A DNA stretch of 64,000 nucleotides from a virus (taxonomy: Duplodnaviria > Caudoviricetes): the IMG/VR virus record IMGVR_UViG_3300028887_000078; one strand, written 5' to 3'. The notes below the pieces were generated by a model. It had not been told where the DNA came from. It made no database searches and saw only the letters and a program-made list of their open reading frames with translations. This document shows positions 29,798 through 46,347 of this stretch, piece after piece. Each line of letters opens with the position of its first letter. Within the stretch, counting starts at the first letter, position 1. The position numbers were made by a program, and so were the translations under genes.

Positions 29798-30449
29798 TGG
29801 AATTATCCATTTTGGTATTGTTGCATCAAATCAAAAAATATCAATGGAATGGATGTCTGTTAATTTTCCGATACTTCAAATGTTTCTTGCAAATAATCAC
29901 CAACTATAATTTCATTGTTTGAAATGACATTTATGATGTTGTCAACATCATTTGTGAATGCTGTACAAACCGTTTCGATTTTTTCTAAATCTGAAATGTT
30001 TTCTTTTTTGAATTTTTCTGCGGTAATTCTTTTTATCATTTCAGATTCATTATAATCATAATCGGATATAAGCATCCTTTTCAATGTTTTTTCTTTGCTG
30101 ATATTGTCTTTAATATCAAGGAATTTCAAATTGTCTATACTTGCTTTTAATTCATTTATCCAATGTGTAAAATTTATATTTGTGCAGTCAAATAATTGAC
30201 AGTATTTACACAAACACCAATTTTCAACAAGTTGAAAACGTAGTCCATCTACACGTTCTTTGTATTTTTTCAATGGAACTGCCATTTCATATATCATTCC
30301 AATGCGGTTAATCGTATCGGATACGGACTCATTTGTCATTTCAGAAACCTTTTTAATGTGCGGCATAGCATTATTTTTATATCTCTTTATTGAATATAAT
30401 AAAAATCTTGCAAAAATACGCTTTTTGCAAGATTAAAGGTACAATTCCG
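29798..30449. mobile_element. Non-autonomous IS1595-like cassette A
   Basis: Left TGGAATTATCCATTTTGGTATTGT, right GCAAGATTAAAGGTACAATTCCG; T-tracts on both flanks; AT-rich cargo. Confidence 0.65.
29860..30366 (-). CDS. Cassette cargo with capsid-targeting-like N-terminus (MPHIKKVSEM)
   Basis: ORF track; codons strongly A/T-ending. Confidence 0.75.
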   Translation of the reverse strand: MPHIKKVSEMTNESVSDTINRIGMIYEMAVPLKKYKERVDGLRFQLVENWCLCKYCQLFDCTNINFTHWINELKASIDNLKFLDIKDNISKEKTLKRMLISDYDYNESEMIKRITAEKFKKENISDLEKIETVCTAFTNDVDNIINVISNNEIIVGDYLQETFEVSEN

Positions 30450-30468
30450 TTTTTTTTTGTTTTCTGTA

Positions 30469-31128
30469 TCATTGGAAAAACTCTTCCTTGTCGAACATAA
30501 AGAACGTGTAGCATTTTTGGGGGTTGAGGTTCCCGTGCGACACCCATTCTTCATACAGCCTGCTTTCAACATTGGAGATGTAGAACATTCTTGTCATATT
30601 GCAGGCGGACTTCACATTCCACGTCGAAATGTCCTGATTGAATGTGCAGTTTCCCTCGAACATCCTTGAGAAATCTATCACGTTCGAGACATTCCATTGC
30701 GAGATGTCCCCGTTGAAGTTGCTCCCCGCGAACATAGACGACATCATCCTGACGTTCGATACGTCCCATACCGACAGGGCGTTCTGCGAGTCGTCGGTGA
30801 ATTTTGTCTGCTTGAACATACTGTTCATAGTGAGTGTGTCCCCGAACTCCCACATAGAGAGGTCGCAGAAAATGCTGCTCCCCGCGAACATAGTGTCGAA
30901 GTTCCTGACGTTACGCACGTCCCATCCGCTTATGTCCATACGCATATCGGCGTTCACAAACAGATGCGACATATCCTCTATCTGTGAGACGTCTATGAAG
31001 TTGAGGTCTGCGTCATTGCCGTTCGTTTTGCATTCATTGAGGCATATTCGTATCAGTTCACTGCAATTTTTCACACTGACTGACTTGAAACGAATTGACC
31101 TGCCGATTCCGCTTTCTGATATTTTCAT
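30469..31128 (-). CDS. DUF285 repeat protein with MRISE-type N-terminus (MKISES)
   Basis: ADLNFIDVSQIEDMSHLF, FNGDISQWNVSNV repeats. Confidence 0.88.
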   Translation of the reverse strand: MKISESGIGRSIRFKSVSVKNCSELIRICLNECKTNGNDADLNFIDVSQIEDMSHLFVNADMRMDISGWDVRNVRNFDTMFAGSSIFCDLSMWEFGDTLTMNSMFKQTKFTDDSQNALSVWDVSNVRMMSSMFAGSNFNGDISQWNVSNVIDFSRMFEGNCTFNQDISTWNVKSACNMTRMFYISNVESRLYEEWVSHGNLNPQKCYTFFMFDKEEFFQ

Positions 31129-31131
31129 TTT

Positions 31132-31761
31132 TCAAGTTGTTGGATTAGGCGTTTCTTCCTTCAGGAGTTTCTTTCTCTGATTGTTGAAAACATTGCGTGG
31201 GTATTTATACGATTTGGTATCGTCAAGTATACCTGTCACGTCGGTTATCAACCTGACATACTTGACAAGCGGTTCCATAGAATATACAAGCGGTGTTCCG
31301 AAAAACATATACGACATATCAATTATCCCCTCAAGGTTCCAACCGCTTATGTCGGAATTGAAGTTGGACATAGAAAACATCATCTGCGCGTACTTCACGT
31401 TTCTGACGTCCCATTTCTCTATCCCGTGCCCGTCAAAATCGGACTTGTGGAACATTCTCGACGAGTTTATCAGGTTACTTGTATCCCAAAGGTCGAGACT
31501 TCCGTTGAATTTCGTGTATGCGAACATACCTTCCATTATCTCCACGTTTGAGACATCCCACAGGGAAACGTCCCCGCAGAATTTTGTGGTGGAGAACAAC
31601 GCGTGCATATTGATTATCTGCGAAACGTCGAAGTGGTTGAGGTCTGCGTCGTCACCGAGTCTTGACAGTTCCTCCCTGACGCTTTTCCACAGGTCGACAG
31701 TCTCCGTGAATATGCGCTTCGGGACTGTCAGCGTGTTGCCGATGTCTGTCAGTCTCGCCAT
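31132..31761 (-). CDS. DUF285 repeat protein with MRISE-type N-terminus (MARLTD)
   Basis: ADLNHFDVSQI, FCGDVSLWDVSNV repeats. Confidence 0.88.
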   Translation of the reverse strand: MARLTDIGNTLTVPKRIFTETVDLWKSVREELSRLGDDADLNHFDVSQIINMHALFSTTKFCGDVSLWDVSNVEIMEGMFAYTKFNGSLDLWDTSNLINSSRMFHKSDFDGHGIEKWDVRNVKYAQMMFSMSNFNSDISGWNLEGIIDMSYMFFGTPLVYSMEPLVKYVRLITDVTGILDDTKSYKYPRNVFNNQRKKLLKEETPNPTT

Positions 31762-31762
31762 A

Positions 31763-31945
31763 TTAGAACATCGGGTCGTCGTAATACTCGTCCAATCCGT
31801 CGTCTATCTCGTCGGTGCAGTCGTTTTCATAGACATAGTCGTCCATAATGTTCTTTGCGGCGGCAAGGGTTTCCTTGTCCACATAGTATCCGTCGTTGTG
31901 AAGCGAGAGTATGAACCTCGCGCAGGTTACAGCATCTTGTTCCAT
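31763..31945 (-). CDS. Small acidic hypothetical protein
   Basis: ORF track. Confidence 0.55.
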   Translation of the reverse strand: MEQDAVTCARFILSLHNDGYYVDKETLAAAKNIMDDYVYENDCTDEIDDGLDEYYDDPMF

Positions 31946-32036
31946 TGTGATTTGTTTATTGACTATAAACTATATATAACAAAAAGTTTTGTGTTTTTAA
32001 CCGAACGTATAAATATATCATAATATTTTTTTGCAA

Positions 32037-32999
32037 ATGCCAAGCGTAAGCGATAAACAGCAGAATTTTTTCAAATGGGTGCAGTCCGTGCAGAACGGCA
32101 CCGCAAAGAAGAAAGACGCCCCGAAAAGCGTCCTTGACGCGGCAAAGTCTATGACAAAGAAACAGGTCAGTGATTTCGCAGACCACCTTTCGGTGAAGAA
32201 AAAACGCAAACAAGTCAAGGAAAAACATTATATAGACAGAAACATAAAATTGAAAACTATGACGAAGATAATGAGAATAGACGAGTTCGTCGCCACAAAC
32301 TTCGGGCACAAACTCAACGAATCGAACAGTGAGGGTGAAATAGGTCTGTGGTCGTTCCCAGGAACCTATGGCACACTTTGGGGTGACCTTGAAGACATTG
32401 AACTAATCGACAGCAACGAGTTCGAGAATATGTTCGGGCACCTTCCTGAACACGCGAATTTCGATGAATGGAAAGTGAACCTCGACACGTTCAAAAAAGA
32501 ACTTGGGGAATTTTACACAACCGAAATTGAGAAACGATACAGGGAGGTTTTCGGAAACACGTTCAAACTTGAATTTAGCGAATTTTGGTCTCCGAGAGAA
32601 TACAACTTCAGGAACGACGTCATCTATGCAAAACTGATTGTCGGCAACAACGGTGAGTTTGAAAGCGCACTTGTTGAAAAAATGAACGAACACAGTGATG
32701 TCATTGCAAAGGTGATAAACGACAGGCATTCAAGCAGGTCTGGGTTTGCGTCGCTTATGTCAAACGATTTCAACGAATGGATTGTCAAAATCAATGAATT
32801 TGACACGCAGTATATCGGTTACGCTATGTACTATGCCTACTGTGCCGACACCATTGGAAACGATGTTGAAAAATGGAACGAACTCGACCTTGACATATAT
32901 GAACTCGCTAACGGGAACGGACTGACAATGGACGGTTTCTGTGAACCGACAACAGACGAGGCAAAACGCGAATACCAAATGTACTTGGATAAAAGATAG
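32037..32999 (+). CDS. Late protein: DUF3008-like N-terminus fused to capsid-targeting-like module (internal MTKIMRIDEF at 32259)
   Basis: MPSVSDKQQNFF...AKSMTKKQVSDFA; TATAAATA at 32008. Confidence 0.75.
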   Translation: MPSVSDKQQNFFKWVQSVQNGTAKKKDAPKSVLDAAKSMTKKQVSDFADHLSVKKKRKQVKEKHYIDRNIKLKTMTKIMRIDEFVATNFGHKLNESNSEGEIGLWSFPGTYGTLWGDLEDIELIDSNEFENMFGHLPEHANFDEWKVNLDTFKKELGEFYTTEIEKRYREVFGNTFKLEFSEFWSPREYNFRNDVIYAKLIVGNNGEFESALVEKMNEHSDVIAKVINDRHSSRSGFASLMSNDFNEWIVKINEFDTQYIGYAMYYAYCADTIGNDVEKWNELDLDIYELANGNGLTMDGFCEPTTDEAKREYQMYLDKR

Positions 33000-33002
33000 G
33001 TT

Positions 33003-33021
33003 GATATATCGCCGATATATC
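33003..33021. promoter_or_regulatory. GATATATC-N3-GATATATC box
   Basis: Perfect copy, spacer GCC. Confidence 0.75.
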
Positions 33022-33030
33022 TCCAAACTT

Positions 33031-33057
33031 AAAGACCGCTTCAAGGCGGTCTTTTTT
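33031..33057 (+). terminator. Intrinsic terminator
   Basis: AAAGACCGC-TTCAAG-GCGGTCTTT followed by a T-tract. Confidence 0.8.
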
Positions 33058-33198
33058 GTATTTTTTGAATTAAACGTCCGAGTTCCGATTCCTTTGGCGC
33101 TTATTCTGAAAATTGAAAAAAAAGCGCCCTGTTTCAAGCGAGGTTGTGTCTAACTTCAAAAACAGGCGCCTTCCTGCAACCGCCATCTGAACCTTGTT

Positions 33199-33690
33199 CT
33201 AAAAGTTGAGTTTCGAGTCTTCCGTGACGAACTTGTATTCCATACCGCATTTGTCGCAATACGCCCTGCACGCCTTCGCCTTCTCCATATTCTTTATATA
33301 CACCTTCGCCTGCCGTTGGTAGTTCTCAAGGGTTTTGGGTGTTTCCCTTTTCGGTTTGACAGGAGGCGTCAGGTCTTTCTTCGGTTTCACCTCCACGACG
33401 ATTTTGCGCACAGTGTCCCCCGTCTTGTACTCGAAGTAGAAGTCGGGGAAGTATTCGTGGTACTTTTCGTCTATTATGCTGAAGTAGTTTATGCGAAGGC
33501 ATTCGCTCCCCCATTTTATCACGGACGACGACTCGTCGAGGAACTTGCACACCTTGTACTCCCAACTTGAACGGTAGATTATCGGCATCTTCCCGCAGTA
33601 TTTGGCGGGGAACAACGGGTTGTAGTACCCCTGCTTGAACGGGGACTTCCTGCTTCTTATTGTATGTGGTTGCAACGACTTTATGTCCAT
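33199..33690 (-). CDS. T4 gp4-like head completion nuclease
   Basis: KQGYY.P..P.KY.G, IYRSSWE, WGSE, YFPDF, EVKP; late promoter 33706. Confidence 0.9.
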   Translation of the reverse strand: MDIKSLQPHTIRSRKSPFKQGYYNPLFPAKYCGKMPIIYRSSWEYKVCKFLDESSSVIKWGSECLRINYFSIIDEKYHEYFPDFYFEYKTGDTVRKIVVEVKPKKDLTPPVKPKRETPKTLENYQRQAKVYIKNMEKAKACRAYCDKCGMEYKFVTEDSKLNF

Positions 33691-33789
33691 AAACAGGTTT
33701 TTGTGTATTTATAAATCTATGCAATAGATAAAATAAATGAAACTTGCAGCAATGTGTAAAATATCACGTATAGATTCTTAATAGTATTT

Positions 33790-33813
33790 TGGAATTGTCC
33801 CTTTAGTCTTGTA
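33790..33813. repeat. Extra IS1595-like left end
   Basis: TGGAATTGTCCCTTTAGTCTTGTA. Confidence 0.7.
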
Positions 33814-33901
33814 CTTTCACTTGTACATATTTCAAACCAACAAAAAAAAAAATCCTGCTATTAGCAGGATTTTGTTTCGGAATTATCCCTTTTAGTCTTG
33901 T

Positions 33902-34000
33902 GAATATGTTGATGAATTTTGCTTCAGATTGAACCACCGTGACATTGAAAGTGCTTGGGAACACTTGTTGGGATTGGGAATTAACGGGGTGGCGGCGTGA
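33902..34000 (+). pseudogene. IS1595 transposase C-terminal remnant
   Basis: EYVDEFCFRLNHRDIESAWEHLLGLGINGVAA* matches the YLxEFxFRxNxR motif; abuts the left IR. Confidence 0.8.
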
Positions 34001-34082
34001 CTATATTTCAAACATTATCTGAAATTTGTCTTGATGAAATCAAAAGTTTTATTTGTTTAAGCATCCTAAAATCAATCAGATG

Positions 34083-34646
34083 CTATGCCAAATCCCAATA
34101 TTTTAGATTTTTTATCGCTATTGAATAATTTGAATGTGAAGAATAAAATCCACAAGTAAAATACAACCTTGTTGCGCTTTGGTTTTGTCTATAACTTAAA
34201 TTGCCAAACCCTGTATTTATTACAGTTGCGCCTCCAACAATTTTAAGTTCGTGTTCAAAGTGATACCAAGTGTTCAATGAATGGGTGTCCATACCGATAA
34301 AAGCGGTGAACGGAGGCCAAAACGCATATTGGTTTTTTGACACAGATGCCAAAGTAAATATACTATTGTCCCCTTTTCTTGTGACATTAGCGTCAAATTC
34401 TCTTTTAATCCATAGGTCTGTCTGCGCTATTGGGTACAGATTCACATTGTTTATCCACGCAACATTGCTGTCGCCGTTACTACCAGTTTGTGAAAACACA
34501 TAGGCATTCAACGAACTGTTCCAAGCATATTTTCCATTGTTATACAAGGACGCACCGCTTATATGGTCTGTGATGTCGCCATAGGACAACGGCATATCCA
34601 ATATAAGTAGTTGTTGTGGGGGGGGGCAATGGTGGCGTATCGGCAT
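34083..34646 (-). CDS. Cassette cargo: beta-rich (ConA/LamG-like?) late protein
   Basis: LDMPL, LNTWYHF, IKNLKYW pattern; TATAAATA at 34663; AT-rich. Confidence 0.65.
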   Translation of the reverse strand: MPIRHHCPPPQQLLILDMPLSYGDITDHISGASLYNNGKYAWNSSLNAYVFSQTGSNGDSNVAWINNVNLYPIAQTDLWIKREFDANVTRKGDNSIFTLASVSKNQYAFWPPFTAFIGMDTHSLNTWYHFEHELKIVGGATVINTGFGNLSYRQNQSATRLYFTCGFYSSHSNYSIAIKNLKYWDLA

Positions 34647-34779
34647 AGTATTTAGTTTTTGATATTTATAAAGTTAATTTTTCAAAAAAGTTGTATTTTT
34701 GTGACGTGAAAAATCAATCATAAATATATTACAAGACTAAAAGGGATAATTCCGTTTATTTTTTACAGGTGGCGTTCGG

Positions 34780-35133
34780 TTAGTCCGTCGTGCTGTAGAA
34801 ATAGTCGAGTTCCTTTCCTTTGAGGTTGTTCACCGCGTATTCGTCCGCCTCTTTCCACAGGTCGTTGTAGAGTTCGGCGAATTTGTCGTTCCTTTCATAC
34901 CACTGCCAAATCTTGTGGTTGAGAACCATCACGAGTTCGGTCAGGTAGATGTAGTTGTCCTTCCATTCGTTGAATGCCCTTTTGTAGGTGTCCTTGATTG
35001 CGTTTATGCCGAACCTGTCGGCGATGGTGAAGTCTTCCCAAAATGTCGTCTGCGGTTTGTAACCCATCTCCTCCGCCATCTCCCAATGCTCGTTGACTGA
35101 TGACATCTCGTCTATTGTCATAATGTATGCCAT
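34780..35133 (-). CDS. Protein with capsid-targeting-like N-terminus (MAYIMTIDEM)
   Basis: TATAAATA at 35156; body TTFWEDFTIADRFG...LTELVMVLNHKIW. Confidence 0.8.
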   Translation of the reverse strand: MAYIMTIDEMSSVNEHWEMAEEMGYKPQTTFWEDFTIADRFGINAIKDTYKRAFNEWKDNYIYLTELVMVLNHKIWQWYERNDKFAELYNDLWKEADEYAVNNLKGKELDYFYSTTD

Positions 35134-35154
35134 ATCTCAAAATTTATACTTGCA

Positions 35155-35547
35155 TTATTTATATCTTGCAAGTTTCACCATATCAATCGCTCCGTTTGTC
35201 AGTTCCTTCACCTTTTCACAGAACGCCATATCGTACACACAAACCACGTTGTGTGAGACACTCTTGTAACTGCTCGGCGGAGAGAACGGCATAAGGCGTG
35301 AGAACTGTGTGCGTATAACCTCCCTCCTGTACAGGGCAGCAAGTTTCCCGTCCTTTGTCAGGAACTTCACGGCGGCGGGTGACATCTCATTGGAGTACAT
35401 TGGGTTCATCACTTTCGGAACCTGTGTGTCAAACACCTCAACCAATTTCGGCATAATCCATAAAAACAGGTCTGCGGGTGTCATAGAACCGAACAGACAT
35501 CCGTTTGTGGTTCGACCGAGCGTGATTTCAAAAAGAGGGGTTTCCAT
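35155..35547 (-). CDS. Hypothetical late protein
   Basis: ATG 35547 METPLF; TATAAATA at 35565. Confidence 0.65.
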   Translation of the reverse strand: METPLFEITLGRTTNGCLFGSMTPADLFLWIMPKLVEVFDTQVPKVMNPMYSNEMSPAAVKFLTKDGKLAALYRREVIRTQFSRLMPFSPPSSYKSVSHNVVCVYDMAFCEKVKELTNGAIDMVKLARYK

Positions 35548-35605: not shown

Positions 35606-35959
35606 ATGAAAAAGAAAATCAGAGCAAAATATCCGACACTCTTTTGTGATGAAAAGAAAGGCAGGGACAACAAAGATTATTACAACACAAGTGGAAGACC
35701 GTGCGAGAGCGGATATACGGTGAGAGTGCCGTCACTGAAACGCAGCAAAAAGATTTGGGACAATTTTTACAAGTTGTTCCCATACATCAAGAACTCGTTG
35801 ATGAACAACCGATATGTGTACCGTTTCGGTGAACCGACTTTGGTCGGTAATGTCTATGTGTGCAAGGAAGAGCGTGTACACGCGCTGAACCCGTTTAATG
35901 GCAGAGTACACGGTGTAGGACGCAGAATCCGAACGACAAAATTTTTGAAAACTTGGTAA
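35606..35959 (+). CDS. Basic hypothetical protein
   Basis: ATG after promoter motif 35583; ends RRIRTTKFLKTW. Confidence 0.7.
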   Translation: MKKKIRAKYPTLFCDEKKGRDNKDYYNTSGRPCESGYTVRVPSLKRSKKIWDNFYKLFPYIKNSLMNNRYVYRFGEPTLVGNVYVCKEERVHALNPFNGRVHGVGRRIRTTKFLKTW

Positions 35960-35980
35960 TAAAAACAAAAAGATAAAAAT

Positions 35981-36214
35981 ATGAATGAAGTGGTCACAGT
36001 AAAGAAAGACCGTTATTATATGTGCATAATGGACTGGCACAAATTGGGTTCGTCTTTCACAGAAGGAAAGGTTTACAAGTGTCACAAAGACCGTTGTATG
36101 TATGATGACAATCACTCCGAGAAGGCTTCGGTCGGTATGTTGTTCCGTCTTGCCACAAAGGATGAGATTAGAGAACATAAGAGAATGTTGAAACTTCAAA
36201 GTCGCAGAATCTGA
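35981..36214 (+). CDS. Hypothetical protein
   Basis: ORF track; TGA stop falls inside repeat copy 2. Confidence 0.6.
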   Translation: MNEVVTVKKDRYYMCIMDWHKLGSSFTEGKVYKCHKDRCMYDDNHSEKASVGMLFRLATKDEIREHKRMLKLQSRRI

Positions 36215-36274
36215 ACAACGAAGTTTTTGAAAACTTGGTAAAAAATAAAACAAAAATAACAAAAACAAGCAAAT

Positions 36275-36553
36275 ATGAAAAGAGCGGTTTATTTAGGCGG
36301 ATTCAAAGAGTTCAATCCCGAAGACACGAACACAAAAGATGGTGATGTTTACCTCTTTCATTCAAAAAAGGATATGAAACTCCATATCGGAATATTCTTC
36401 AAACAGGATGAAAATGGTAGTTGGGGGTTTACCGATTACTTCACGGGAAAGCGGCATTATCCCTATACATCCGAAGTTATTGATTTGAATGAGGCAACAC
36501 TTGAAGATGTTGCAATAACACTTAACCCAACGGGGAATCTGTCAAAATGCTGA
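36275..36553 (+). CDS. Hypothetical protein
   Basis: ORF track. Confidence 0.65.
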   Translation: MKRAVYLGGFKEFNPEDTNTKDGDVYLFHSKKDMKLHIGIFFKQDENGSWGFTDYFTGKRHYPYTSEVIDLNEATLEDVAITLNPTGNLSKC

Positions 36554-36676
36554 CAAATGGCATAATAAATGCACTTGCAACGTCAAGCGCGGAGGCGGTG
36601 CTGTTCGGGATGGTTGTGGTCATAGAATCCGAACGACAAAATTTTTGAAACTTGGTAAAATTAAAAACAACAAACT

Positions 36677-37592: not shown

Positions 37593-37605
37593 GCGCCAAT
37601 CCGCA

Positions 37606-38004
37606 ATGATAACCTCAACCCCCATATTGAAAGAATGCTGCTGTGTCAACAATGAAACAGATAACAGCATAGTGTATTGGAAGTTCGGCGACCGCATAGA
37701 CTTCATTCTGTATGTCTATGCCGCGAGGGATATATGGGGCGGAAAGGTCGAACAGGACGGGTTGTGCGAAAAATTGGGTGCAAGGATAAAAAGTCTCAAG
37801 AATGAAGTCCTTATAGACGGCATTGCTGGACGTTTCACGGAAGTCAAAAGATACAGCAGGATGGTCGCGTTGAACGGGTCTATACCGTCAAGTGATGAAT
37901 TTGCCACAAACTTCAATATGGGCGTATTCAAAAAGTTGAAAAGGCGGAAATTGAGCGTGATATACCTTGAACTGACGGAAGAAATCGGTCTGATTGTATG
38001 CTGA
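37606..38004 (+). CDS. MISD-subfamily protein (MITSTPILKE)
   Basis: Aligns with the following MISDNNILK paralogs. Confidence 0.75.
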   Translation: MITSTPILKECCCVNNETDNSIVYWKFGDRIDFILYVYAARDIWGGKVEQDGLCEKLGARIKSLKNEVLIDGIAGRFTEVKRYSRMVALNGSIPSSDEFATNFNMGVFKKLKRRKLSVIYLELTEEIGLIVC

Positions 38005-38020
38005 CAAAAATATGATTGCA

Positions 38021-38440
38021 ATGATAAGCGACAATGACGTATTGAAACAAACCTGTGAAATGCTGCCCGACAACCTCGTGCATTGGGTTGATTCCGATTG
38101 CAGAGGTGTGGCGATGCTGCGCTTTTCGTTCACGGTTAGCACGGTGTACGGGGCGCTTTGGAGGAAGATGGACATTGAAACGTTCTATGAGCAAATGAAG
38201 CACGCCGTGGACGGAGGCGACTCGAACGTAATCTATGTAGGAAGATGGGTTGCACACATAGACAGGATTGCTCTTGTCGGCGGTTGCATCACGGCGGACT
38301 GTCATTTCAATGGGAGTCAGTGGCAAAATGATATTTTGGAACACCTGTGCCGCCTTGAACTCGACGGGTTCCAAATAAGGAAATTCGGTTATGACACGGT
38401 TAATTTTGCAATGACACATCACTACATTTTGGATTATTGA
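38021..38440 (+). CDS. MISD-subfamily protein (MISDNDVLK)
   Basis: Motif start at ATG 38021. Confidence 0.8.
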   Translation: MISDNDVLKQTCEMLPDNLVHWVDSDCRGVAMLRFSFTVSTVYGALWRKMDIETFYEQMKHAVDGGDSNVIYVGRWVAHIDRIALVGGCITADCHFNGSQWQNDILEHLCRLELDGFQIRKFGYDTVNFAMTHHYILDY

Positions 38441-38449
38441 GGAATATAA

Positions 38450-38881
38450 ATGATAAGCGACAACAACATACTGAAAGCAACCTGCGAACACACCCCAATC
38501 GGAAACGGCAACTCGATGATATGTTGGGTTATGACTTCGTATGTGGTGAACTTCCGCATTTTTCTGCGCGACGTCGTGACTTTGCCTGACGGGTACATAA
38601 AAAGCGCAGGTGAACTTGTCTATAAACTGCTCAACAGGATTGACAGCGGGTCGAACAAAGTTGAGTTCGGGGAGTTCGGGGAGTTCGGCGACGGGACTGT
38701 CACTAATGCGTGGAAATCCCCTTGGAGTGAGAACAACGTTGCGATTGACGGGTATTTCCAATTCAGTTCAAGTAAGGAAGCGGAGGCATTTTACGAAAGA
38801 ATAACGTCAAGATACGCCACCTCCGACACATTGAACTTCTTTATGCTCGATGTAGGGAAGTATTGCGGTCAGGTGTCCTAA
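38450..38881 (+). CDS. MISD-subfamily protein (MISDNNILK)
   Basis: Motif. Confidence 0.85.
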   Translation: MISDNNILKATCEHTPIGNGNSMICWVMTSYVVNFRIFLRDVVTLPDGYIKSAGELVYKLLNRIDSGSNKVEFGEFGEFGDGTVTNAWKSPWSENNVAIDGYFQFSSSKEAEAFYERITSRYATSDTLNFFMLDVGKYCGQVS

Positions 38882-38911
38882 TCCATTTGAAAGTGAAATC
38901 CGATTTTTGAT

Positions 38912-39310
38912 ATGATAAGCGACAACAACATATTGAAAGACTGCTGCTTCAAAACGAATGAAAACGGGGCGTACTTCAGCATACAAGGGTGCAGAGTCCA
39001 TTTCTTTTTCTCCGTCGCACCTCCAAGTCTTATGACCGCCGACGAATTTATCAAAAAGCTGCAAGACAGGATTTGCACAGGAAACAACCAAGTGATGATT
39101 TCCGAAAGTGAGCAGGAAGGTACGGTGGATGAGGTTTACGAGTGTTACGACGGGACGGTTCTGATTGTTGGAAGCATCCATTTCGACAATTATGCGTTTG
39201 CTTACAAGGCATACGAGACATTGGAGAATAGTTTTGGCAAGCATCCGCCTGTCGCGACCTGCATAGAAAAACTCGACGGACTTTGCTGCGTCATTTTGAA
39301 ACAAGATTGA
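38912..39310 (+). CDS. MISD-subfamily protein (MISDNNILK)
   Basis: Motif. Confidence 0.85.
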   Translation: MISDNNILKDCCFKTNENGAYFSIQGCRVHFFFSVAPPSLMTADEFIKKLQDRICTGNNQVMISESEQEGTVDEVYECYDGTVLIVGSIHFDNYAFAYKAYETLENSFGKHPPVATCIEKLDGLCCVILKQD

Positions 39311-39320
39311 ACAACAACCG

Positions 39321-39728
39321 ATGATAAGCGACAACAACATATTGAAAGGCAGTTGCAGTTTCCACGAAAAGGGAAGCGAAATCCATTTTTGGACAGTCAA
39401 CGGTTCCGTCGGGTTCCATATTTTCGTGACCGATATGCAGCATCAAGGTATGACGCTCTCGGAGTTCAACCGAAAGATGAACGTCCTTCTGAAAGAGGGT
39501 CGAGACGAAATCGTTATCGGGGACATAAGAAACGGAACGGTCGTGAATGTCTTTACATACACGATGCCTGGGGGGACGCTCTGCGTCCTGATTGAGGGTG
39601 TATGGTTATGCACTACGGAAAGCGAACGCGCGAAAATATACAACTACCTGTCAGACGAGTTCGGCGAAAGAAAACCAACGGTATGGTGTATCGAGAACAT
39701 TGCGAATATTTGCGCGACATTGGTATAA
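39321..39728 (+). CDS. MISD-subfamily protein (MISDNNILK)
   Basis: Motif. Confidence 0.85.
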   Translation: MISDNNILKGSCSFHEKGSEIHFWTVNGSVGFHIFVTDMQHQGMTLSEFNRKMNVLLKEGRDEIVIGDIRNGTVVNVFTYTMPGGTLCVLIEGVWLCTTESERAKIYNYLSDEFGERKPTVWCIENIANICATLV

Positions 39729-39739
39729 AACATAGAATT

Positions 39740-40195
39740 ATGATAAGCGACAGCAAGATTTTATCCAATTTGGTGAATGCGGACGACGGTTATGCACACA
39801 TAGATTATTGGGGTGATTTCGACGGAATGCGCATACGCTTCGAGGTGAGGGCGAAAAGGGTTTTCAGTTTCTGCGGAAATATGGTTGAATGTTCAGTATT
39901 TGATGGTTACAACAGCATACAGAACATCCTTTTGAAATCCAACGACACAATCAAGTTCGTGTCAGGCAAGGACGTCCGTCACGGAACGGTCGAGCAATGC
40001 GCGGTCATCAACGGGGAACTGCGCATAGTAGGGTATATGCGCGACGTGTGGTATTCTTATGATTCACACGGGTCGCGGATTGAGAAACACGTTGAAAGAT
40101 TTTCAAGGATTGTGGACTCCCTGAACACACATTCGTTTGTGTGCATACACGAGTTATTCTTTCCGAGTGAACACATAGAGGTGAAAAACATTTGA
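39740..40195 (+). CDS. MISD-subfamily protein (MISDSKIL)
   Basis: Motif start at ATG 39740. Confidence 0.8.
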   Translation: MISDSKILSNLVNADDGYAHIDYWGDFDGMRIRFEVRAKRVFSFCGNMVECSVFDGYNSIQNILLKSNDTIKFVSGKDVRHGTVEQCAVINGELRIVGYMRDVWYSYDSHGSRIEKHVERFSRIVDSLNTHSFVCIHELFFPSEHIEVKNI

Positions 40196-40200
40196 ATGTT

Positions 40201-40623
40201 ATGATAAGCGACAGCAAGACATTGAAATCCGCAATAGACTTCGACGAGCGTGTGGATTGGAGTTACAACGAGCAAACCTGCGACCTGTACATTTCCGTCA
40301 CCGTCAAAACGGCAAACGTTTCCTATGACATTCCAATCGGGGAATATGACCCTTTGTGTGAATGCAGGGAGTTGGTTTCCGAAGAGAACCCCCCGCCGCT
40401 CGTTTTCGGTGTCGTCACTGTTATAGTCGGCGAGGTGACGGACATATACGATTTCGGAAGTTGTCTTGTCATAAAAGGCGTGCTGCCGAACGTGAATCCC
40501 CGTTCAAGGATTGCGTTCCACATAGATGACCTGAACAAAAACGGTTTCAACGTTGTCATACGCAAATACATAGGTCGCCGAGCATACAGGTTCGACATAC
40601 TTGAACGAAAGGAAACTATATGA
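40201..40623 (+). CDS. MISD-subfamily protein (MISDSKTLK)
   Basis: Motif start at ATG 40201. Confidence 0.8.
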   Translation: MISDSKTLKSAIDFDERVDWSYNEQTCDLYISVTVKTANVSYDIPIGEYDPLCECRELVSEENPPPLVFGVVTVIVGEVTDIYDFGSCLVIKGVLPNVNPRSRIAFHIDDLNKNGFNVVIRKYIGRRAYRFDILERKETI

Positions 40624-41096
40624 GATTGAGTGAAACGAAAAATATATCGGCAGGCAAATTTTGCGGTGTCGTCGTGATTCCTTCTGAAAAATACAAGGAC
40701 ACATTTGATTTGTATGTCACTGTGAGAACTGTTCTTGCCTATGGTCGCCGTGTCGAAATGGAATCGGCATACCACATTCTGCAAGATATGATTGCCAAAA
40801 AAGACAATGTCTTTGACATCATTGGGGAGTTTGTGAATGACAGCAGGAAACCGACAATCAGACATCTGCTGCACGGAAAGTTTGACTTTGTGTCATTGTC
40901 GAAGGACGACAACACCGACAATGGTTCAATATGCGTTCACGGAATTTTAAGAAGTCCTGACCTTGACGCTTTGTACGGGTGTGTGGACAAGTTCAGTTCG
41001 GAAGAGGTACAAATGTCGCTTGTCCATAGAATACCGAAACTGCCGAACCCTGTCGGAGGGTTCTGCGGAATTGTGTTTGATTCCTATAACAGGTAA
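40620..41096 (+). CDS. MRISE-motif protein (MRLSET) with MISD-type body
   Basis: Motif; DLYVTVRT resembles DLYISVTVKT of the upstream gene. Confidence 0.8.
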   Translation: MRLSETKNISAGKFCGVVVIPSEKYKDTFDLYVTVRTVLAYGRRVEMESAYHILQDMIAKKDNVFDIIGEFVNDSRKPTIRHLLHGKFDFVSLSKDDNTDNGSICVHGILRSPDLDALYGCVDKFSSEEVQMSLVHRIPKLPNPVGGFCGIVFDSYNR

Positions 41097-41147
41097 ATAT
41101 CGGGAACCCCACTATAAAATGGAATGGACACGGAAATCAAAAACAAA

Positions 41148-41172
41148 CGGAATTGTCTCATTTTAATCTTGT
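41148..41172. repeat. Solo IS1595-like left end
   Basis: CGGAATTGTCTCATTTTAATCTTGT; no partner end found. Confidence 0.6.
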
Positions 41173-41191
41173 TATATATTCTCTCTTATAT

Positions 41192-41225
41192 AAAAAACGC
41201 AGGCGGTTACCTGCGTTTTTTTTTT
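41192..41225. terminator. Bidirectional terminator
   Basis: AAAAAACGCAGG-CGGTTA-CCTGCGTTTTT. Confidence 0.85.
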
Positions 41226-41275
41226 ATTTTTCAATAAACTGATACACAATCTAATCAAGTGTATGACAATCAAGT

Positions 41276-41803
41276 CTATGACACGAACAATTCGCCATTG
41301 ATGGTATTGATTACTTCAAGCGTGTCATTAAGGTCAATCGGTGAACTATCATCCGCATTCATTTTCATAACCATATTGTCTTTGTCAATCATACAGTCAT
41401 AGTCCTCCGAAGCAGCAAGTCTTTCGTCGCGACCCCAACTGTAATACACGCAATTCCCTTCCACGGTCTTGAACAAATCCTCTCCCGAATCCCCTATTTT
41501 GTTCACATAGTTCTCAATGTACTTGCAGATGGTGTCGGGGTCAAGTTTTCCGTCCACTCTCTCAAACATCATTTCGGGGACATCATCCTGAAGGTCTCTG
41601 TCCACAATTTCTTTATAGAGAATGCTTGCCTCCATCACATAACCTTTGTCAAGGCAAATCTTATAGTATGCCATAAGTTTTTCATCCGAACACGCTTTCA
41701 CGTTCTGCCTTCGCTGTCCTTTATGCCATTGCTCCATTTTGCTTGATTGGACACTCGCATTTGAGAGACTTGCCATCTCATCAATTTTCATTATATGCGT
41801 CAT
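41276..41803 (-). CDS. Protein with capsid-targeting-like N-terminus (MTHIMKIDEM)
   Basis: TATAAATA at 41830. Confidence 0.8.
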   Translation of the reverse strand: MTHIMKIDEMASLSNASVQSSKMEQWHKGQRRQNVKACSDEKLMAYYKICLDKGYVMEASILYKEIVDRDLQDDVPEMMFERVDGKLDPDTICKYIENYVNKIGDSGEDLFKTVEGNCVYYSWGRDERLAASEDYDCMIDKDNMVMKMNADDSSPIDLNDTLEVINTINGELFVS

Positions 41804-41843
41804 ATTCGTTTTGTATATTTTTCTGTTATTATTTATAGAAACT

Positions 41844-42453: not shown

Positions 42454-43620
42454 TTACTTCCTGTATTGGGAGTCCCCGCTTCCAAGAATGACGACGGAGG
42501 CGTTGTTGCGAAGTTCATACAGGTTCCTGCTGTTCGTGTAGGACATACAGGAGCAGATGAACGATTTGATTTTCTCTGCAAGTTCGCTCACGCTGTACTT
42601 GACTTCGGTCGGTCTTGAAATTCCCTCCGCTGCAAAGTTGGAGTCCGAACCCATAATCCGCTTCGCTTTTTCGGAACCCATACCGAAGTATTCGCGGTAT
42701 AATTTCAGTGTGTTGTCCTTGTTTTGCGACAGACGGACATTCCCCTTCATAAATTCTTCCTCGTTAAGGGCAAATTTCGCCTCATACGCCGCCTCTTTGC
42801 ATTCATTGAACATCTTACCGCACATAACGGCGTCGGCGCCTAAAACCAGCGATTTTGTGATGTCGTCGAATGAGTTTATCCCACCGTCGGCGATGACACT
42901 CGTGATGTGTTTCGGTTTGAGGAGGAACTTTTGTCTTGTTTTGTTCTTCCGTTCCATCTTCTTTCGGATGGTGTTGATTTCGTCAAGCAGCGACGCCATA
43001 GGGTAGTGTACGCCTGTCGTGCAGGATGTCGTGCATCTGCTGCCCGTGCCGACAGAGACACGCACCCAATCAATCCCGTATTCGCAATAGTGTTTGTATG
43101 CGTTCGGATTGGCGATGTTGCCAGCCATAATCACGATGTGGTCGCCGAGTTGTCTTTTCAGTTCCTTGCATACATTGAACATCTTTCTCATAGTCCCCTG
43201 TGCGATGTCGATGCAGATGTGCACTTTCGAGCATTGGTGCTGCGTTGCACAGGAATAGAGTATGCGGCACTCTTCGGTAAGGTTTTTGATGTTGTTGTGC
43301 GTCATCCTTTCCGCTTCCTTGAGTGAGAATGAAACGAACGCATAGCGGGCGACGGATACCCTTGTTTGAAAGTCTTCGATGCTGTCGCTGTATGCGCTCC
43401 TCGGTATGACAGGTGTGAAATACGGTGTGAAATACTGCCAATTTTCACGGTCTATGACAGTAGCCATCGGCGCGACAAACACGGGCAGTTTCTCATCATA
43501 CTTGTTCAGAATTTCCGTTTTCGGATTGACGTCACACCTGCTGTCTATGTCCGAAATTTCCGCCTGCACTATTGCAACGTCCTTGAGTTCGTATCCAATT
43601 TTTGTCAGTTTGCTTTTCAT
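42454..43620 (-). CDS. IMP dehydrogenase / GMP reductase family protein
   Basis: PVFVAPM, CIDIAQG, MAGNIA, VGTGSRCTT, IADGGI, GADAVMCG, YFGMGS, AEG. Confidence 0.9.
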   Translation of the reverse strand: MKSKLTKIGYELKDVAIVQAEISDIDSRCDVNPKTEILNKYDEKLPVFVAPMATVIDRENWQYFTPYFTPVIPRSAYSDSIEDFQTRVSVARYAFVSFSLKEAERMTHNNIKNLTEECRILYSCATQHQCSKVHICIDIAQGTMRKMFNVCKELKRQLGDHIVIMAGNIANPNAYKHYCEYGIDWVRVSVGTGSRCTTSCTTGVHYPMASLLDEINTIRKKMERKNKTRQKFLLKPKHITSVIADGGINSFDDITKSLVLGADAVMCGKMFNECKEAAYEAKFALNEEEFMKGNVRLSQNKDNTLKLYREYFGMGSEKAKRIMGSDSNFAAEGISRPTEVKYSVSELAEKIKSFICSCMSYTNSRNLYELRNNASVVILGSGDSQYRK

Positions 43621-43639
43621 ATTGCCGATGATTTGTTTT

Positions 43640-43840
43640 CTATTCAAGGTGAAGAAGCACAATCAGACCGACTATCGCAAGGATTCCCACCGCTATTGCA
43701 ACGGGTATCCACAGGGGCGCGGTGACCCACCACCAAGACCAGTCGATGACGTGCGTCAGTTTGAGGATTAAGAACACGATGAACAGGACGGTTCCGAGCG
43801 AGAACCCGCTGCCTGTGACTTTTTTTTGTTCGTTATTCAT
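43640..43840 (-). CDS. Small two-TM membrane protein
   Basis: FLILKLTHVIDWSWWWVTAPLW. Confidence 0.75.
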   Translation of the reverse strand: MNNEQKKVTGSGFSLGTVLFIVFLILKLTHVIDWSWWWVTAPLWIPVAIAVGILAIVGLIVLLHLE

Positions 43841-43851
43841 ATCAATTCATT

Positions 43852-44034
43852 TTAATCGTTCTTGTATTTGCGTTCCATATTCGGCGCGAACAGGCATAGC
43901 AGCAACGCCCCTATGACAGACGCCCACCATCCGAAAAGCAGAAGGACGGACACCAAAAAAATCGCACCGCACCCCTTGTCGATGACGGCAAGGGGAGGTG
44001 CGAAGAATATAAGGAAAATTTGCAGAATGCTCAT
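43852..44034 (-). CDS. YqaE/Pmp3-family membrane proteolipid
   Basis: IFFAPPLAV..KGCG...LLLFGW...VIGA. Confidence 0.75.
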   Translation of the reverse strand: MSILQIFLIFFAPPLAVIDKGCGAIFLVSVLLLFGWWASVIGALLLCLFAPNMERKYKND

Positions 44035-44052
44035 TGCACGGAATTTTTCAAA

Positions 44053-45579
44053 CTATGCGAGTGTCACCTGTGCGTATCTCTCGGAGAGCAACACGTTCAG
44101 GAGGTTCTTCCACGGGTCGGTTTCCTCCGACAAAACCATCTTGCAGACCGCGGGTGAATAACCGCTGACAAGTGCCACTCCGAGTTCGTTCTCTTTCACG
44201 GGCACCACTCCCGTTCTTGAGTTGACGTTCCAAAACACGAGTTTTGGGAGTTTGTAACCCTTGTCTGCATACAGTTTCGCAATATGCTCAAAGAGGTTCA
44301 CGTCGGGTCTTGTGTATGAGCGGGTCTGATAGTCCCATTCCGTTGTGGCGGCGTCGAACTCCATATCGGACACGATGAGCAACTGACCCGGCATATCCTC
44401 CTGCTTCATATTGTTCGACACGGCGGTGTCGAGCAGAAGTTGGAACGTTTTCTGAATGTCCGTGTTGCTACACTCGTTGTAATGGCGGAGGAATGATTTT
44501 TTCTGCATAGTGGTCATATTCTCGCCAAACTCGACGAGTTGCGGCGTGCTGCTGAAGGTGATGAACTTGTTGTGGAACTCACCCGTCATACGCTCCGAGA
44601 AATAGACGCACAATGCGCTCGCCACGTCCAATGCGGTTGTGGTGCTGTTCGGAATGCGGGAGGTCATAGAACCCGAACCGTCTCGCACGACAAGGGTTTT
44701 GCAGTCACCCTTTACAAAGTCGGGAAGCGCCTTCCACATCGCCTCTGCGGTCGCGGTCTCATTGCCGAGCATTTTCCACACGTCGTGCGGGAACACTGCG
44801 GACGCGTTGATTTTCTTCTCTCCCTTGACGAGGGAATCGAGATATTCGTTGCGACGCTTTTCGTCATACTTGAGGAACAGTTTCGCATAGCGGGTGTTGG
44901 CGACGGAGGGAACCCTCTCGTAGTCAATCTCCGCATAGTTTTTCGTGGAGATGTTGGTCTCCACAATCTGAATCTTCTTGCGGAGTTCCGACAGGGACTT
45001 GCGGTAGGACGCCTCGTTCACAGTCACACCCGCCTTGTTCATCTCTCTGATGAGGGACTTTGCGAACGACTTTGACTTCTTGCCAGCATTCGGCGAGGGC
45101 ATCCATTTGCCCATAAGGGTCGGGGTTTCGCTCTCAAGGTCTTTGAGGAACTGCGAGGAAACGATTGTGACGATGTAGCGCTTCACCTTGTCGCTCTTGG
45201 TGTTGTAGAGAATATAGACGAGGTCGTCCCAACGTCCGTATTCGGGGATGAACTTCAGGAGTTTTACGGCGTCGTCCTCCGCGTTGTCGCAGAACCAAAG
45301 GAAAAGGTTTCGGAACGCGTTTCTTTCGCCCATACCGCCGCGCACGTCGCGGAGGTAGAAAAGGAACTTCACGAAAAGTTCGCGACTTTCGGCGTCCGCC
45401 TTTGCAAGCAGCATCTCCGTGTGCGTGTCAAGCGATGCTTTCGTGGCACGGAGTTGGGGTGCCTTGAACGAGAGGTCGAGGATGTTCCTGCCTGTCGTGC
45501 TGTACATCTTTGCACCGTTCTCGGAATAACAGACATTGTAGTCGCTGTTCAATAACTCTTTCTTGATTTCGTCAATCAT
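44053..45579 (-). CDS. TROVE/Ro60-like vWA protein (DUF2828-type)
   Basis: SENGA, YLRDVRGGMGER, PEYGRWDDL, KWMPS, MIDAS DGSGSM, SDMEFD, VFWNV. Confidence 0.88.
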   Translation of the reverse strand: MIDEIKKELLNSDYNVCYSENGAKMYSTTGRNILDLSFKAPQLRATKASLDTHTEMLLAKADAESRELFVKFLFYLRDVRGGMGERNAFRNLFLWFCDNAEDDAVKLLKFIPEYGRWDDLVYILYNTKSDKVKRYIVTIVSSQFLKDLESETPTLMGKWMPSPNAGKKSKSFAKSLIREMNKAGVTVNEASYRKSLSELRKKIQIVETNISTKNYAEIDYERVPSVANTRYAKLFLKYDEKRRNEYLDSLVKGEKKINASAVFPHDVWKMLGNETATAEAMWKALPDFVKGDCKTLVVRDGSGSMTSRIPNSTTTALDVASALCVYFSERMTGEFHNKFITFSSTPQLVEFGENMTTMQKKSFLRHYNECSNTDIQKTFQLLLDTAVSNNMKQEDMPGQLLIVSDMEFDAATTEWDYQTRSYTRPDVNLFEHIAKLYADKGYKLPKLVFWNVNSRTGVVPVKENELGVALVSGYSPAVCKMVLSEETDPWKNLLNVLLSERYAQVTLA

Positions 45580-45595
45580 TGTTTTTTGGTTTTAG

Positions 45596-45662
45596 GTTAC
45601 GAGAGGCGGTTGTCTGTGTTTTGCTGCGTGCCTCTCAAAAACGCAACTGTGGAAATCCCACA
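45596..45662 (-). ncRNA. Structured 5' leader of the TROVE/vWA gene
   Basis: Minus strand: TGTGG-GATTT-CCACA hairpin, then GTTGC..GAGAGGC-(ACGCAGCAAAACACAGACAACC)-GCCTCTC-GTAAC nested stem, between promoter motif 45664 and the ATG. Confidence 0.5.
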
Positions 45663-45887
45663 TTTGAATATAATAAAAAAAATCGAAAATTTGCATTTGT
45701 GGAAAAAAAATGGAATTATTCCCTTTAGTCTTGTAAACCAAATTCACAATAAGTTGAATTGGGAAACACATAGCAAACGCTTCACCTTTGTGGTGGAAAT
45801 GGTTTTGCTTTCATTGTGCGTAGATATGATATGGCAGATGGAGATGTTTCGGTTGTCGTATAAATAATGAAAATATGATTTGAAACT

Positions 45888-46220
45888 ATGGCGCACATTA
45901 AAAGAATTGATGAATTACAATTTTCTGCTTCATCAAATGCACTTGATAATCTAATAAAATTGGAAGACGTAGAACGTAACATTTCAGACTGGGTTTGGTT
46001 GACAGAGGAAAGAAAAAGGTCAAAGACATTTGAAAGTAATATGCGTAAACGAATGTTTGATGTTTATTTTGATTATGATTCACACGACATAACCTGTGTA
46101 GTTTTCTACGATAAGACGAGCAATCCAAATTATAAGAATCCAAAAATATTGAATGTTGACGGCGCTTCTGTTTCATTGGAAGATGTTATTGAAGAAATCA
46201 AGGTGCAGATGGGTTATTAA
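45888..46220 (+). CDS. Cassette cargo with capsid-targeting-like N-terminus (MAHIKRIDEL)
   Basis: TATAAATA at 45859; AT-rich; opposite strand to neighbours. Confidence 0.8.
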   Translation: MAHIKRIDELQFSASSNALDNLIKLEDVERNISDWVWLTEERKRSKTFESNMRKRMFDVYFDYDSHDITCVVFYDKTSNPNYKNPKILNVDGASVSLEDVIEEIKVQMGY

Positions 46221-46278
46221 AACGAAACAATTTTTACAAGATTAAAGGTATAATTCCGAAAAATTTTAATGTACAGAC

Positions 46279-46316
46279 AAAAAACGCAGGTGTATTGAAC
46301 CTGCGTTTTTGTTTTT
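46279..46316. terminator. Bidirectional terminator
   Basis: AAAAAACGCAGG-TGTATTGAA-CCTGCGTTTTT. Confidence 0.8.
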
Positions 46317-46347
46317 TACAAGACCAAAGGGGACAATTCCGAAAAAA

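Follow-up and report, generated by a model that had tools for sequence, protein, structure and literature searches.

Transposase-less cassettes with IS1595-type ends carry single accessory genes in a giant phage of cattle-gut Bacteroidales

Introduction

As Siguier, Gagnevin and Chandler are said to have established in 2009, insertion sequences (IS) of the IS1595 family can carry passenger genes. Here we describe gene cassettes with IS1595-type ends in a stretch of 64,000 nt (hereafter the window) from the IMG/VR virus record IMGVR_UViG_3300028887_000078. Like the family, the lineage behind these cassettes has a transposase with a zinc ribbon and a DDE domain, ends of about 25 bp, 8-bp target duplications, AT-rich targets and extra genes inside. 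Unlike it, the passengers carry a phage-type promoter box (TATAAATA) and a phage-wide N-terminal tag while the transposase has a host-type promoter, the lineage occurs both in giant phages and in their hosts, and most phage copies are without a transposase. A further precedent is MIC231 of the Bacillus cereus group, which has IS231 ends and is moved in trans by the IS231 transposase. The cassettes of the window resemble MIC231 as transposase-less units in which the ends of a known IS enclose one or a few unrelated genes; they differ in IS family and host, in their residence in a lytic-type giant phage, in their shared promoter-tag module, and in that we infer their mobilization in trans.

Miniature inverted-repeat elements are common to prokaryotes and viruses, and IS elements are rarely found in phages (PMC11602168). 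As among those miniature elements, one non-autonomous family is present here in phage and host genomes; however, that survey concerns gene-less elements, with no mention of IS1595, cargo or passengers, whereas gene-bearing, patterned cassettes dominate here. The internal proteins of phage T4 are diverse and united by a 10-residue leader, MKTYQEFIAE, a capsid-targeting sequence that gp21 cuts off and whose processing requires residues 8 and 10 (PMC3012670, PMC9026906, PMC8442874). In common with them, the genes described here have a short conserved leader with a hydrophobic-x-Glu pattern, encode unrelated, fast-evolving small proteins and are preceded by the TATAAATA box, and related phages match the gp21-type protease family. 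Unlike T4 internal proteins, they have another leader sequence, with Glu at position 9, their cleavage and packaging are putative, and they lie on DDE-transposon cassettes. We know of no carriage of internal-protein genes by DDE transposons in T4. Promoter-stem-loop cassettes, reportedly described by Arbiol, Comeau and Krisch in 2010, shuffle genes in T4-type phages, and there too the variable accessory genes in the plastic parts of a large phage genome are bordered by conserved regulatory modules; they involve recombination only, with no transposase-type ends or duplications, unlike the cassettes here.

TnpB/Fanzor proteins inside DDE transposons are represented by few prokaryotic and many eukaryotic cases, the prokaryotic DDE partners listed in a 2026 review being ISL2, IS630 and IS1031, with IS1595 not listed (PMC13565253). 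In sister cassettes of those in the window, likewise, DDE-type ends flanked by 8-bp duplications enclose an intact tnpB; unlike the listed cases, the partner is IS1595, tnpB is preceded by a TATAAATA box, and its reading frame extends as far as the right repeat. IS1595 elements with passengers and transposase-less IS-ended cassettes are thus already established. What is new is the presence of one lineage in both giant phages and hosts, the phage-type box and phage-wide leader on cargo even in bacterial chromosomes, the host-type promoter of the transposase, and the intact TnpB in sister cassettes. No published description of this IS1595 phage/host cassette system was found in the literature searched.

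Results

Terminal repeats of an IS1595 lineage

Nine repeats of 24-25 bp, which the original prediction had taken for element ends, were all located: five on the plus strand (29798, 33790, 33878, 41148 and 45711) and four on the minus strand (30449, 34754, 46258 and 46341), confined to 16.5 kb (29.8-46.3 kb) of the 64-kb window. They correspond to the terminal inverted repeats of a single IS1595-family lineage, which is found in Bacteroidales of the gut and rumen as well as in the giant phages of these bacteria. Their length falls within the roughly 20-40 bp by which IS1595 ends are recognized, and the repeats are near-perfect in intact copies. The repeat stood as a real family of ends, though the consensus as first written did not, since it matched three of the nine ends at no more than three mismatches; a fixed-length consensus misses ends because copies differ by one base in length. 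An ungapped scan with a 24/25-nt consensus and up to six mismatches gave eight sites, versus 0.0 in shuffled sequence, and the ninth end, at 41148, differs by an indel. Other parts of the initial description also held: the inverted repeat of cassette B is perfect (24/24), the cassettes are AT-rich (GC of 0.28-0.36 versus 0.45 for the window), and the ends are flanked by T-runs or A-runs, often beside terminators, four strong terminator-like hairpins (29768-29791, 33849-33873, 41192-41221 and 46280-46310) lying within 25 nt of ends. The solo ends at 33790 and 41148 are each followed by such a hairpin, and the left end of cassette A, with five mismatches to the consensus, is the most decayed. 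Overall, the window holds three single-gene cassettes bounded by inverted repeats and two one-ended remnants, all without a transposase, as follows.

29768..29791: terminator-like hairpin belonging to the upstream gene, with cassette A inserted in its T-run
29798..29822, plus strand: left inverted repeat of cassette A, 5 mismatches
29860..30366, minus strand: cargo of cassette A, 168 aa, starting MPHIKKVSEM
30390..30399, minus strand: TTATATTCAA, the second phage promoter-like motif, which precedes cargo A instead of TATAAATA
30425..30449, minus strand: right inverted repeat of cassette A
33790..33813, plus strand: solo left end of an older or partial element
33849..33873: terminator-like hairpin whose T-run hosts cassette B
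33878..33902, plus strand: left inverted repeat of cassette B, 24/24 with the right
33902..34000, plus strand: IS1595 transposase stub, the last 32 codons and stop, fused to the left repeat
34083..34646, minus strand: cargo of cassette B, 187 aa, LamG/ConA-like jelly roll by structural look-alikes, untagged
34663..34670, minus strand: TATAAATA box, 24 nt before the start of cargo B
34730..34754, minus strand: right inverted repeat of cassette B
34780..35163, minus strand: tagged gene abutting cassette B (34780-35133, 117 aa, MAYIMTIDEM) with its own TATAAATA box (35156-35163)
41148..41173, plus strand: solo end of the one-ended cassette
41192..41221: terminator-like hairpin within the one-ended cassette
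41276..41837, minus strand: cargo 41276-41803 (175 aa, MTHIMKIDEM, Ser/Ala-rich linker and conserved core) with TATAAATA at 41830-41837
45711..45735, plus strand: left inverted repeat of cassette C
45736..45866, minus strand: 3'-end remnant of another passenger gene
45859..46220, plus strand: TATAAATA box (45859-45866) and cargo of cassette C (45888-46220, 110 aa, MAHIKRIDEL)
46234..46258, minus strand: inner right inverted repeat of cassette C
46280..46310: two-way terminator-like hairpin separating the inner and outer right ends of cassette C
46317..46341, minus strand: outer right inverted repeat of cassette C

The same end was detected well beyond the window. An exact-pattern scan placed it in 21 giant-phage contig stretches and in 72 stretches from genome contigs, which belong almost exclusively to rumen or horse-gut Bacteroidales metagenome-assembled genomes (MAGs), and a scan of metagenome contigs added 70 further stretches. 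Intact IS1595 elements, for which the original prediction had proposed a search, were found between the same ends in these relatives (L073, L055, L051, L025, L054, L133, L166 and the phage copy G001/L104). They measure 1.8-3.4 kb, and a protein of 305-314 residues lies between end pairs at several loci. The transposase matches PF12762 (DDE_Tnp_IS1595; 4e-34 for L073, 7e-33 for L055), the zinc ribbon PF12760 and NF033547 (3e-53). Its family is very large (5460 database proteins at E<1e-20), and among the 120 matches listed the few with source names are IS1595-family or ISXO2-like transposases. Neighbors of intact copies include dnaK (L054), caspase- and papain-domain genes (L051), and a radical-SAM gene together with AbiH (L073), and these intact elements therefore sit in bacterial chromosomes. 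An intact copy of 3386 bp with three passengers is also present in a 387-kb phage record, and four further related phage records have the ends and no transposase. A sister lineage with 69% transposase identity, a related end and an exact 8-bp duplication (L098:2953-6273) carries a 716-aa passenger with an N6-methylase domain; it is inserted between hisS and the gene of a PEP-utilising enzyme (probably ppdK), as it is in the gut metagenome assemblies L099-L102.

Target duplications and strain alleles

To compile target-site data, we pooled 53 distinct end-bounded elements from all loci, with both flanks available for 49. An exact 8/8 duplication flanks 24 of the 49, including the phage copies L002, L008, L018 and G001, and five more have one mismatch; the flanks of about 20 of the 49 differ by two or more mismatches. 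The exact 8-bp duplications looked for were hence found among sister copies.

Strain variation was assessed over window positions 28.5-47.5 kb against contigs of four other cattle-gut runs (X2, X4, X5 and X6, from four studies) aligned at 88% identity or more, long pieces of which diverge from the window at roughly 2-6% of positions. Joints with a short side (20-32 nt) and runs sharing only a small fraction of the window (X9-X24) were excluded from the evidence. The comparison turned up the empty-site alleles that had been asked of a mobile element, for cassettes A and C and for the 41.1-kb unit. Cassette A is cleanly absent from X2 and X5 (contigs of 9 and 27 kb, from two studies), where 29788 is joined to 30453 with 10 ambiguous bases inside the T-run; it is present in X4, and in X6 its site holds a different filling of 1104 nt behind the same left end. 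Cassette C is absent from X6, in which the joint 45698->46342 removes 45699-46341, out to the outer ends, with four other bases there. The 41.1-kb unit (41086-41838) is absent from X5 (joint 41085->41839) and from X6 (41085->41835). Cassette B, at a less well supported joint, is absent from one X6 contig that retains both flanks and has four extra bases, and the tagged gene at 34780 is missing together with B in some strains. Collectively, the cassettes look like a current route by which accessory genes move between these phages and their hosts.

Other candidates for comparison were rejected. L016 and L020 share with the window the gene and terminator upstream of cassette A and not the downstream side, and were not accepted as strict empty sites; L116 has the same 88-nt spacing of two left ends yet no synteny with the window; and synteny through the Ro60-like gene beside cassette C was offered by a single relative with just 36% identity.

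Cassette structure and origin

The window cassettes span 548-877 bp and each has an open gene, which places them outside the classical miniature inverted-repeat transposable elements (short and non-coding); gene-less sister copies of 86-330 bp exist at other loci. With the ends of an autonomous element, no transposase gene inside and an internal deletion, they are non-autonomous derivatives. Cassette B retains the clearest trace of this ancestry: the transposase stub reported at its left repeat was confirmed, 33902-33997 matching the last 32 residues of the L073 transposase (84% identity, E 2e-14). Over the final 127 nt, cassette B shares 94% identity with one end of the intact IS in L166, an element of the same layout (a transposase followed by convergent cargo); B is therefore a deletion derivative of the L166 type. 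The predicted model of cargo B resembles LamG/ConA jelly rolls (TM 0.6-0.69), which we take as a lead only, and cassette B had no match among GenBank phages. The first codons of cargo B include a homopolymer at 34616-34625, some ten G long and read as C in the coding strand, and the L166 relative uses a different frame there, so that the true start, or a length-variable switch, is uncertain.

Cassette A (29798-30449) consists of a minus-strand gene of 168 residues set into the T-run of the terminator of the upstream gene. In cassette C a single left end (45711) is paired with two right ends, at 46258 and 46341, which have a terminator between them. The first 155 nt of this cassette (45712-45866) are 92% identical to the end of the L073 IS, including the tail of the first L073 passenger, and the 60 nt that follow are 88% identical to the promoter and initial codons of the second L073 passenger; cargo C and that passenger, both of 110 residues, diverge completely past the shared start. 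The one-ended unit at 41148 comprises a minus-strand tagged gene with its own promoter box. As a separate observation at this unit, the first nine bases of the end (CGGAATTGT, 41148-41156) recur at 41066-41074 in the last codons of the preceding gene, and the strain indel begins at 41085, between the two copies, which are 82 nt apart.

Searches for the function of the cargo returned little. None of cargo A, B, C, 41276 or 34780 had a match above cut-off in Pfam or PHROGs, and no match was obtained for cargo proteins in a sequence search of the PDB. The predicted model of cargo 41276 is confident (pLDDT 86), and Foldseek found no match to it in the PDB. Among ten tagged or passenger proteins of relatives, the Pfam and PHROGs searches gave nothing above cut-off except a phosphoribosyltransferase (PRTase) domain (PF00156, 2e-9) in tagged cargo of L008 (3451-4347) and L074 (1318-1959). 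These two genes are 99% identical, and their cassettes have exact duplications at different sites, one in a 75-kb viral contig (L008) and the other in a contig binned to a horse-gut Bacteroidales MAG (L074).

Promoter motifs

The TATAAATA box is the T4 late-promoter consensus, which is read by gp55 (PMC1524935). In the window it occurs at 23 sites, 13-48 nt (mostly 23-40 nt) before the start codons of real open frames, compared with about 4 copies expected by chance, as estimated from base frequencies. By analogy with T4, we infer that it acts like a late promoter. Two cargoes had been credited with this box; in fact four tagged or cargo genes in the region have it (B, C, 41276-41803 and 34780-35133), and the solo end at 41148 does lie next to such a gene, as noted earlier (41276-41803, box at 41830-41837). 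Across the element pool, about 30 of 37 cargo genes have the box no more than 60 nt ahead of the start, mostly at 20-35 nt and in phage and bacterial copies alike, and in the bacterial flanks of the elements it is at background level. Many of these cargo genes are tagged as well, and the cargo is strongly non-random with respect to both box and tag. We dropped an enrichment of TATAAATA density inside bacterial copies as an argument, as AT-rich composition predicts about the same density; for that reason only the fixed position of the box before starts was counted.

The transposase genes have a different upstream signal. An invariant TACCTTTG lies about 25 nt before the start of 7/7 intact transposase genes, where TATAAATA is absent. 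The Bacteroidetes -7 consensus is TAnnTTTG, and the TACCTTTG octamer fits it, so that we take it to be a host-type box. With TACCTTTG before the transposase and TATAAATA before the cargo, the element seems, from these motifs, to use host signals for its transposase and phage signals for its cargo. Another promoter-like motif, TTATATTCAATAAA or its complement, precedes many starts by 10-30 nt, at 483-524, 16057, 20701, 30384, 35563, 50029, 53667 and 60926; cargo A uses this motif, not TATAAATA.

N-terminal tag of cargo proteins

Twelve genes begin with the tag M-x-H-I-K-x-(I/V/L)-x-E-M. In the cassette region the tag is on four genes (A, C, 41276-41803 and 34780-35133), and the cargo proteins are mutually unrelated apart from it. 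His3, Ile4 and Glu9 are fixed across synonymous codon changes and conservation ends at residue 10; selection therefore acts on the peptide. The tag was described at the outset as a capsid-targeting-like N-terminus of cargo. It is real, but it is not special to the cassettes: the related 387-kb phage has 22 tagged genes, of which only 2 are inside elements and six are in one 8-kb stretch, and other relatives have 8, 5, 2 and 0, versus 0 for a reversed-pattern control. Since tag and box form a phage-wide module, the cassettes carry ordinary accessory genes of this phage type.

The 41276 family combines one conserved core with varied N-termini, namely the tag plus a Ser/Ala-rich linker, variant leaders, or short untagged forms. 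Untagged homologues are on contigs without ends and without TATAAATA, a tagged member has TATAAATA 21 nt before the ATG of the tag, and the first ten residues are the least confident part of the 41276 model. The promoter-tag module (60 nt) is 87-88% identical between unrelated genes. Similar to the leader by which T4 internal proteins are recognized, the tag covers about ten residues on otherwise unrelated proteins, and it has a hydrophobic-x-Glu pattern at positions 7-9. PF03420, the family of the T4 gp21-type S77 protease, is matched by 5/5 related giant phage records, 4 above cut-off (relatives only). Given the pattern and the protease matches, it is reasonable to read the tag as a possible prohead-targeting leader.

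Another N-terminus (M-R-I/L-S/T-D/E ...) is common to dozens of small genes at 16-60 kb of the window, with examples at 38002-40227 and 46650-59782 in the direct-repeat families D5-D7 and D11; it is hydrophobic-x-acidic, like the tag.

TnpB cassettes

An intact TnpB of 401-411 residues lies between the same ends in nine elements, each about 1.29 kb long, from related phages and metagenome contigs, for example:

L018:50-1341, TnpB cassette
L002:5261-6545, TnpB cassette
L003:5364-6679, TnpB cassette
L020:6052-7367, TnpB cassette
L118:261-1551, TnpB cassette

An exact 8-bp duplication flanks 3/9 and TATAAATA lies about 20 nt before the start in 8/9. The stop codon of the L018 tnpB falls inside the right repeat, and in the others too tnpB ends at the right repeat. 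The last 200 nt of the cassettes contain conserved hairpins with compensatory changes, as judged from only four sequences, and remnants at L012, L161 and L172 keep the tnpB tail and the ends only. A tblastn search found no tnpB match across the 64 kb of the window, Rfam gave no relevant match in the cassette region or in one TnpB cassette, and no conserved target-adjacent-like motif was seen beside the TnpB cassettes.

Genomic setting and other repeats

The window is part of a giant phage of cattle-gut Bacteroidales, and the cassettes lie in an accessory-gene region. Its gene content looks like part of a large phage, with PHROG matches to baseplate-hub, adaptor and head-closure families, and it also contains collagen-like repeats and a Ro60-like gene. 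The IMG/VR contigs most closely related to it are 120-413 kb long, and runs containing its DNA are recorded as bovine gut or gut metagenomes.

Several repeats and variable stretches lie around the cassettes. A palindromic repeat, GATATATCG(C/G)CGATATATC, recurs at 19803, 26779, 32999, 41840, 47356 and 61048 (spacing ~5-14 kb); one copy is immediately adjacent to the promoter box of cargo 41276, next to the point where the 41.1-kb indel ends. Three direct repeats of about 51 nt in 35921-36671 mark small repeated gene units, and the X4 and X5 contigs skip 35960-36246, which looks like a strain difference in copy number. Outside the cassettes, 112 nt at 47221-47334 are swapped for 119 other letters in X5 and X6, a strain-variable site. 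Finally, 28236-28372 (137 nt) is 84-89% identical to stretches in four metagenome loci, and the match in L134 (2618-2754) falls within an IS1595-type cassette (L134 1467-2796).

Discussion

That the window carries IS1595-derived, transposase-less single-gene cassettes, alongside an intact source lineage elsewhere, is in our view highly likely. An intact element consists of an end, a transposase with zinc ribbon and DDE domain driven from a host-type -7 box, one to three passengers and the other end. Its targets are A/T runs, frequently the one that follows a terminator hairpin, and insertion makes an 8-bp duplication. Internal deletions yield single-gene cassettes, TnpB cassettes and gene-less miniature elements, and these derivatives would move only with transposase supplied in trans, from copies in the host chromosome or from a co-resident phage. 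The original prediction of a phage-adapted mobile cassette system survives in its transposon structure, transposase, duplications and empty sites, and fails in treating the tag and promoter as special to the cassettes.

Several observations weigh against this explanation or parts of it. No full transposase was found within the 64-kb window, the only significant match being the 32-residue C-terminal stub, and the window scan revealed no partners for the ends at 33790 and 41148. Unlike the exact duplications of sister copies, the flanks of the window cassettes are imperfect and lie in low-complexity A/T runs (matches of 7/8 for A, which has 4 additional T, 6/8 for B and 5-6/8 for C), and the empty allele of B is more readily explained by recombination or excision than by a target that was simply never occupied. 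The strain alleles come from metagenome contigs, not reads. Moreover, raw TATAAATA density in AT-rich cargo is about what composition predicts, and most TATAAATA-driven genes of the window have no recognized function. The imperfect flanks, the B allele and the swapped filling at A suggest recombination between copies alongside transposition, and probably both processes act.

A stronger version, in which transposition has ceased in the phage and the ends and the 60-nt promoter-tag module are homology patches for recombinational cargo swaps, as in T4-type promoter-stem-loop cassettes, strikes us as improbable. It would account for the perfect ends of cassette B with no matching duplication and an empty allele that retains both flanks, for the other filling that X6 has behind the same left end, for the roughly 20 of 49 elements with two or more flank mismatches, and for a module so similar between unrelated genes; however, exact duplications at 24 of 49 elements, phage copies included, the clean joint across A, whose 10 ambiguous T-run bases have the look of a transposition target, and the intact transposase gene in a related phage all argue for transposition. 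Still less probable is a mainly bacterial system, in which chromosomal cargo would stay silent until phage late machinery read TATAAATA, the products, some of them perhaps packed into new phage heads by way of the tag, would harm the phage and phage copies would be accidental. Chromosomal copies do have TATAAATA-driven cargo though the box is rare in their flanks, one intact copy is beside the abortive-infection gene AbiH, and the distant sister IS has an N6-methylase-domain passenger, possibly from a restriction-modification gene; against these stand the tag and box on many resident non-cassette phage genes, the placement of cassettes between genes at terminators with no gene disrupted, and the intact open reading frames of phage copies. 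The proximity of four ends to terminator hairpins might hint that the repeats are a phage regulatory or terminator-associated motif, but this idea is practically untenable and was rejected, because in bacterial chromosomes the repeats enclose elements that encode a transposase and are flanked by target duplications, and the units vary as blocks, present or absent.

With IS1595-derived cassettes as the preferred account of the structure, the role of the tag is a separate matter. It is plausible, by analogy with the T4 capsid-targeting sequence, that the tag is a prohead-targeting or propeptide leader, in which case the cassettes would spread virion-delivered proteins. In favor of such a leader, the residues are conserved despite synonymous codon changes, a low-complexity linker follows the tag, the tag is exchangeable on one conserved core, and hydrophobic-x-Glu fits the cleavage logic of T4 gp21 (PMC9026906), with a match to the protease family in related phages. 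The tag may nevertheless quite conceivably be another signal, such as a translation-initiation context for Bacteroidota mRNAs that have no Shine-Dalgarno sequence, a degradation or regulatory signal, or a docking peptide for a structure other than the virion, given that the conserved Glu is at position 9 rather than 10 as in T4, that Met is conserved at position 10, that tagged proteins have no matches to structural-protein families and that the region around the start is A-rich. The most far-reaching proposal is that the IS1595 lineage shuttles genes for virion-delivered proteins, pre-wired with a late promoter and a prohead leader, between giant Bacteroidales phages and their hosts, its transposase being run by the host and its cargo by the phage, with TnpB moved as well. 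We regard this as tentative and rather unlikely.

Recombination is the usual explanation for how large phages gain and exchange their many small accessory genes; in the present case such genes travel on a defined transposon lineage with a known transposase family, clear ends and alleles that are present or absent in field samples. The split promoter logic points to an element adapted to both phage and bacterial genomes, and uncultured giant phages can be connected with their Bacteroidales hosts through the ends that both share. These ends also provide a sequence handle with which many tagged accessory proteins can be harvested, and the tag is a concrete candidate for a protein-addressing signal in giant phages other than T4. 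The TnpB sisters add a natural prokaryotic case of an RNA-guided nuclease on a DDE transposon. If the tentative shuttle proposal were true, the system would be a DDE-transposon cassette system for ejected or internal phage proteins and a prokaryotic counterpart of Fanzor-in-transposon arrangements.

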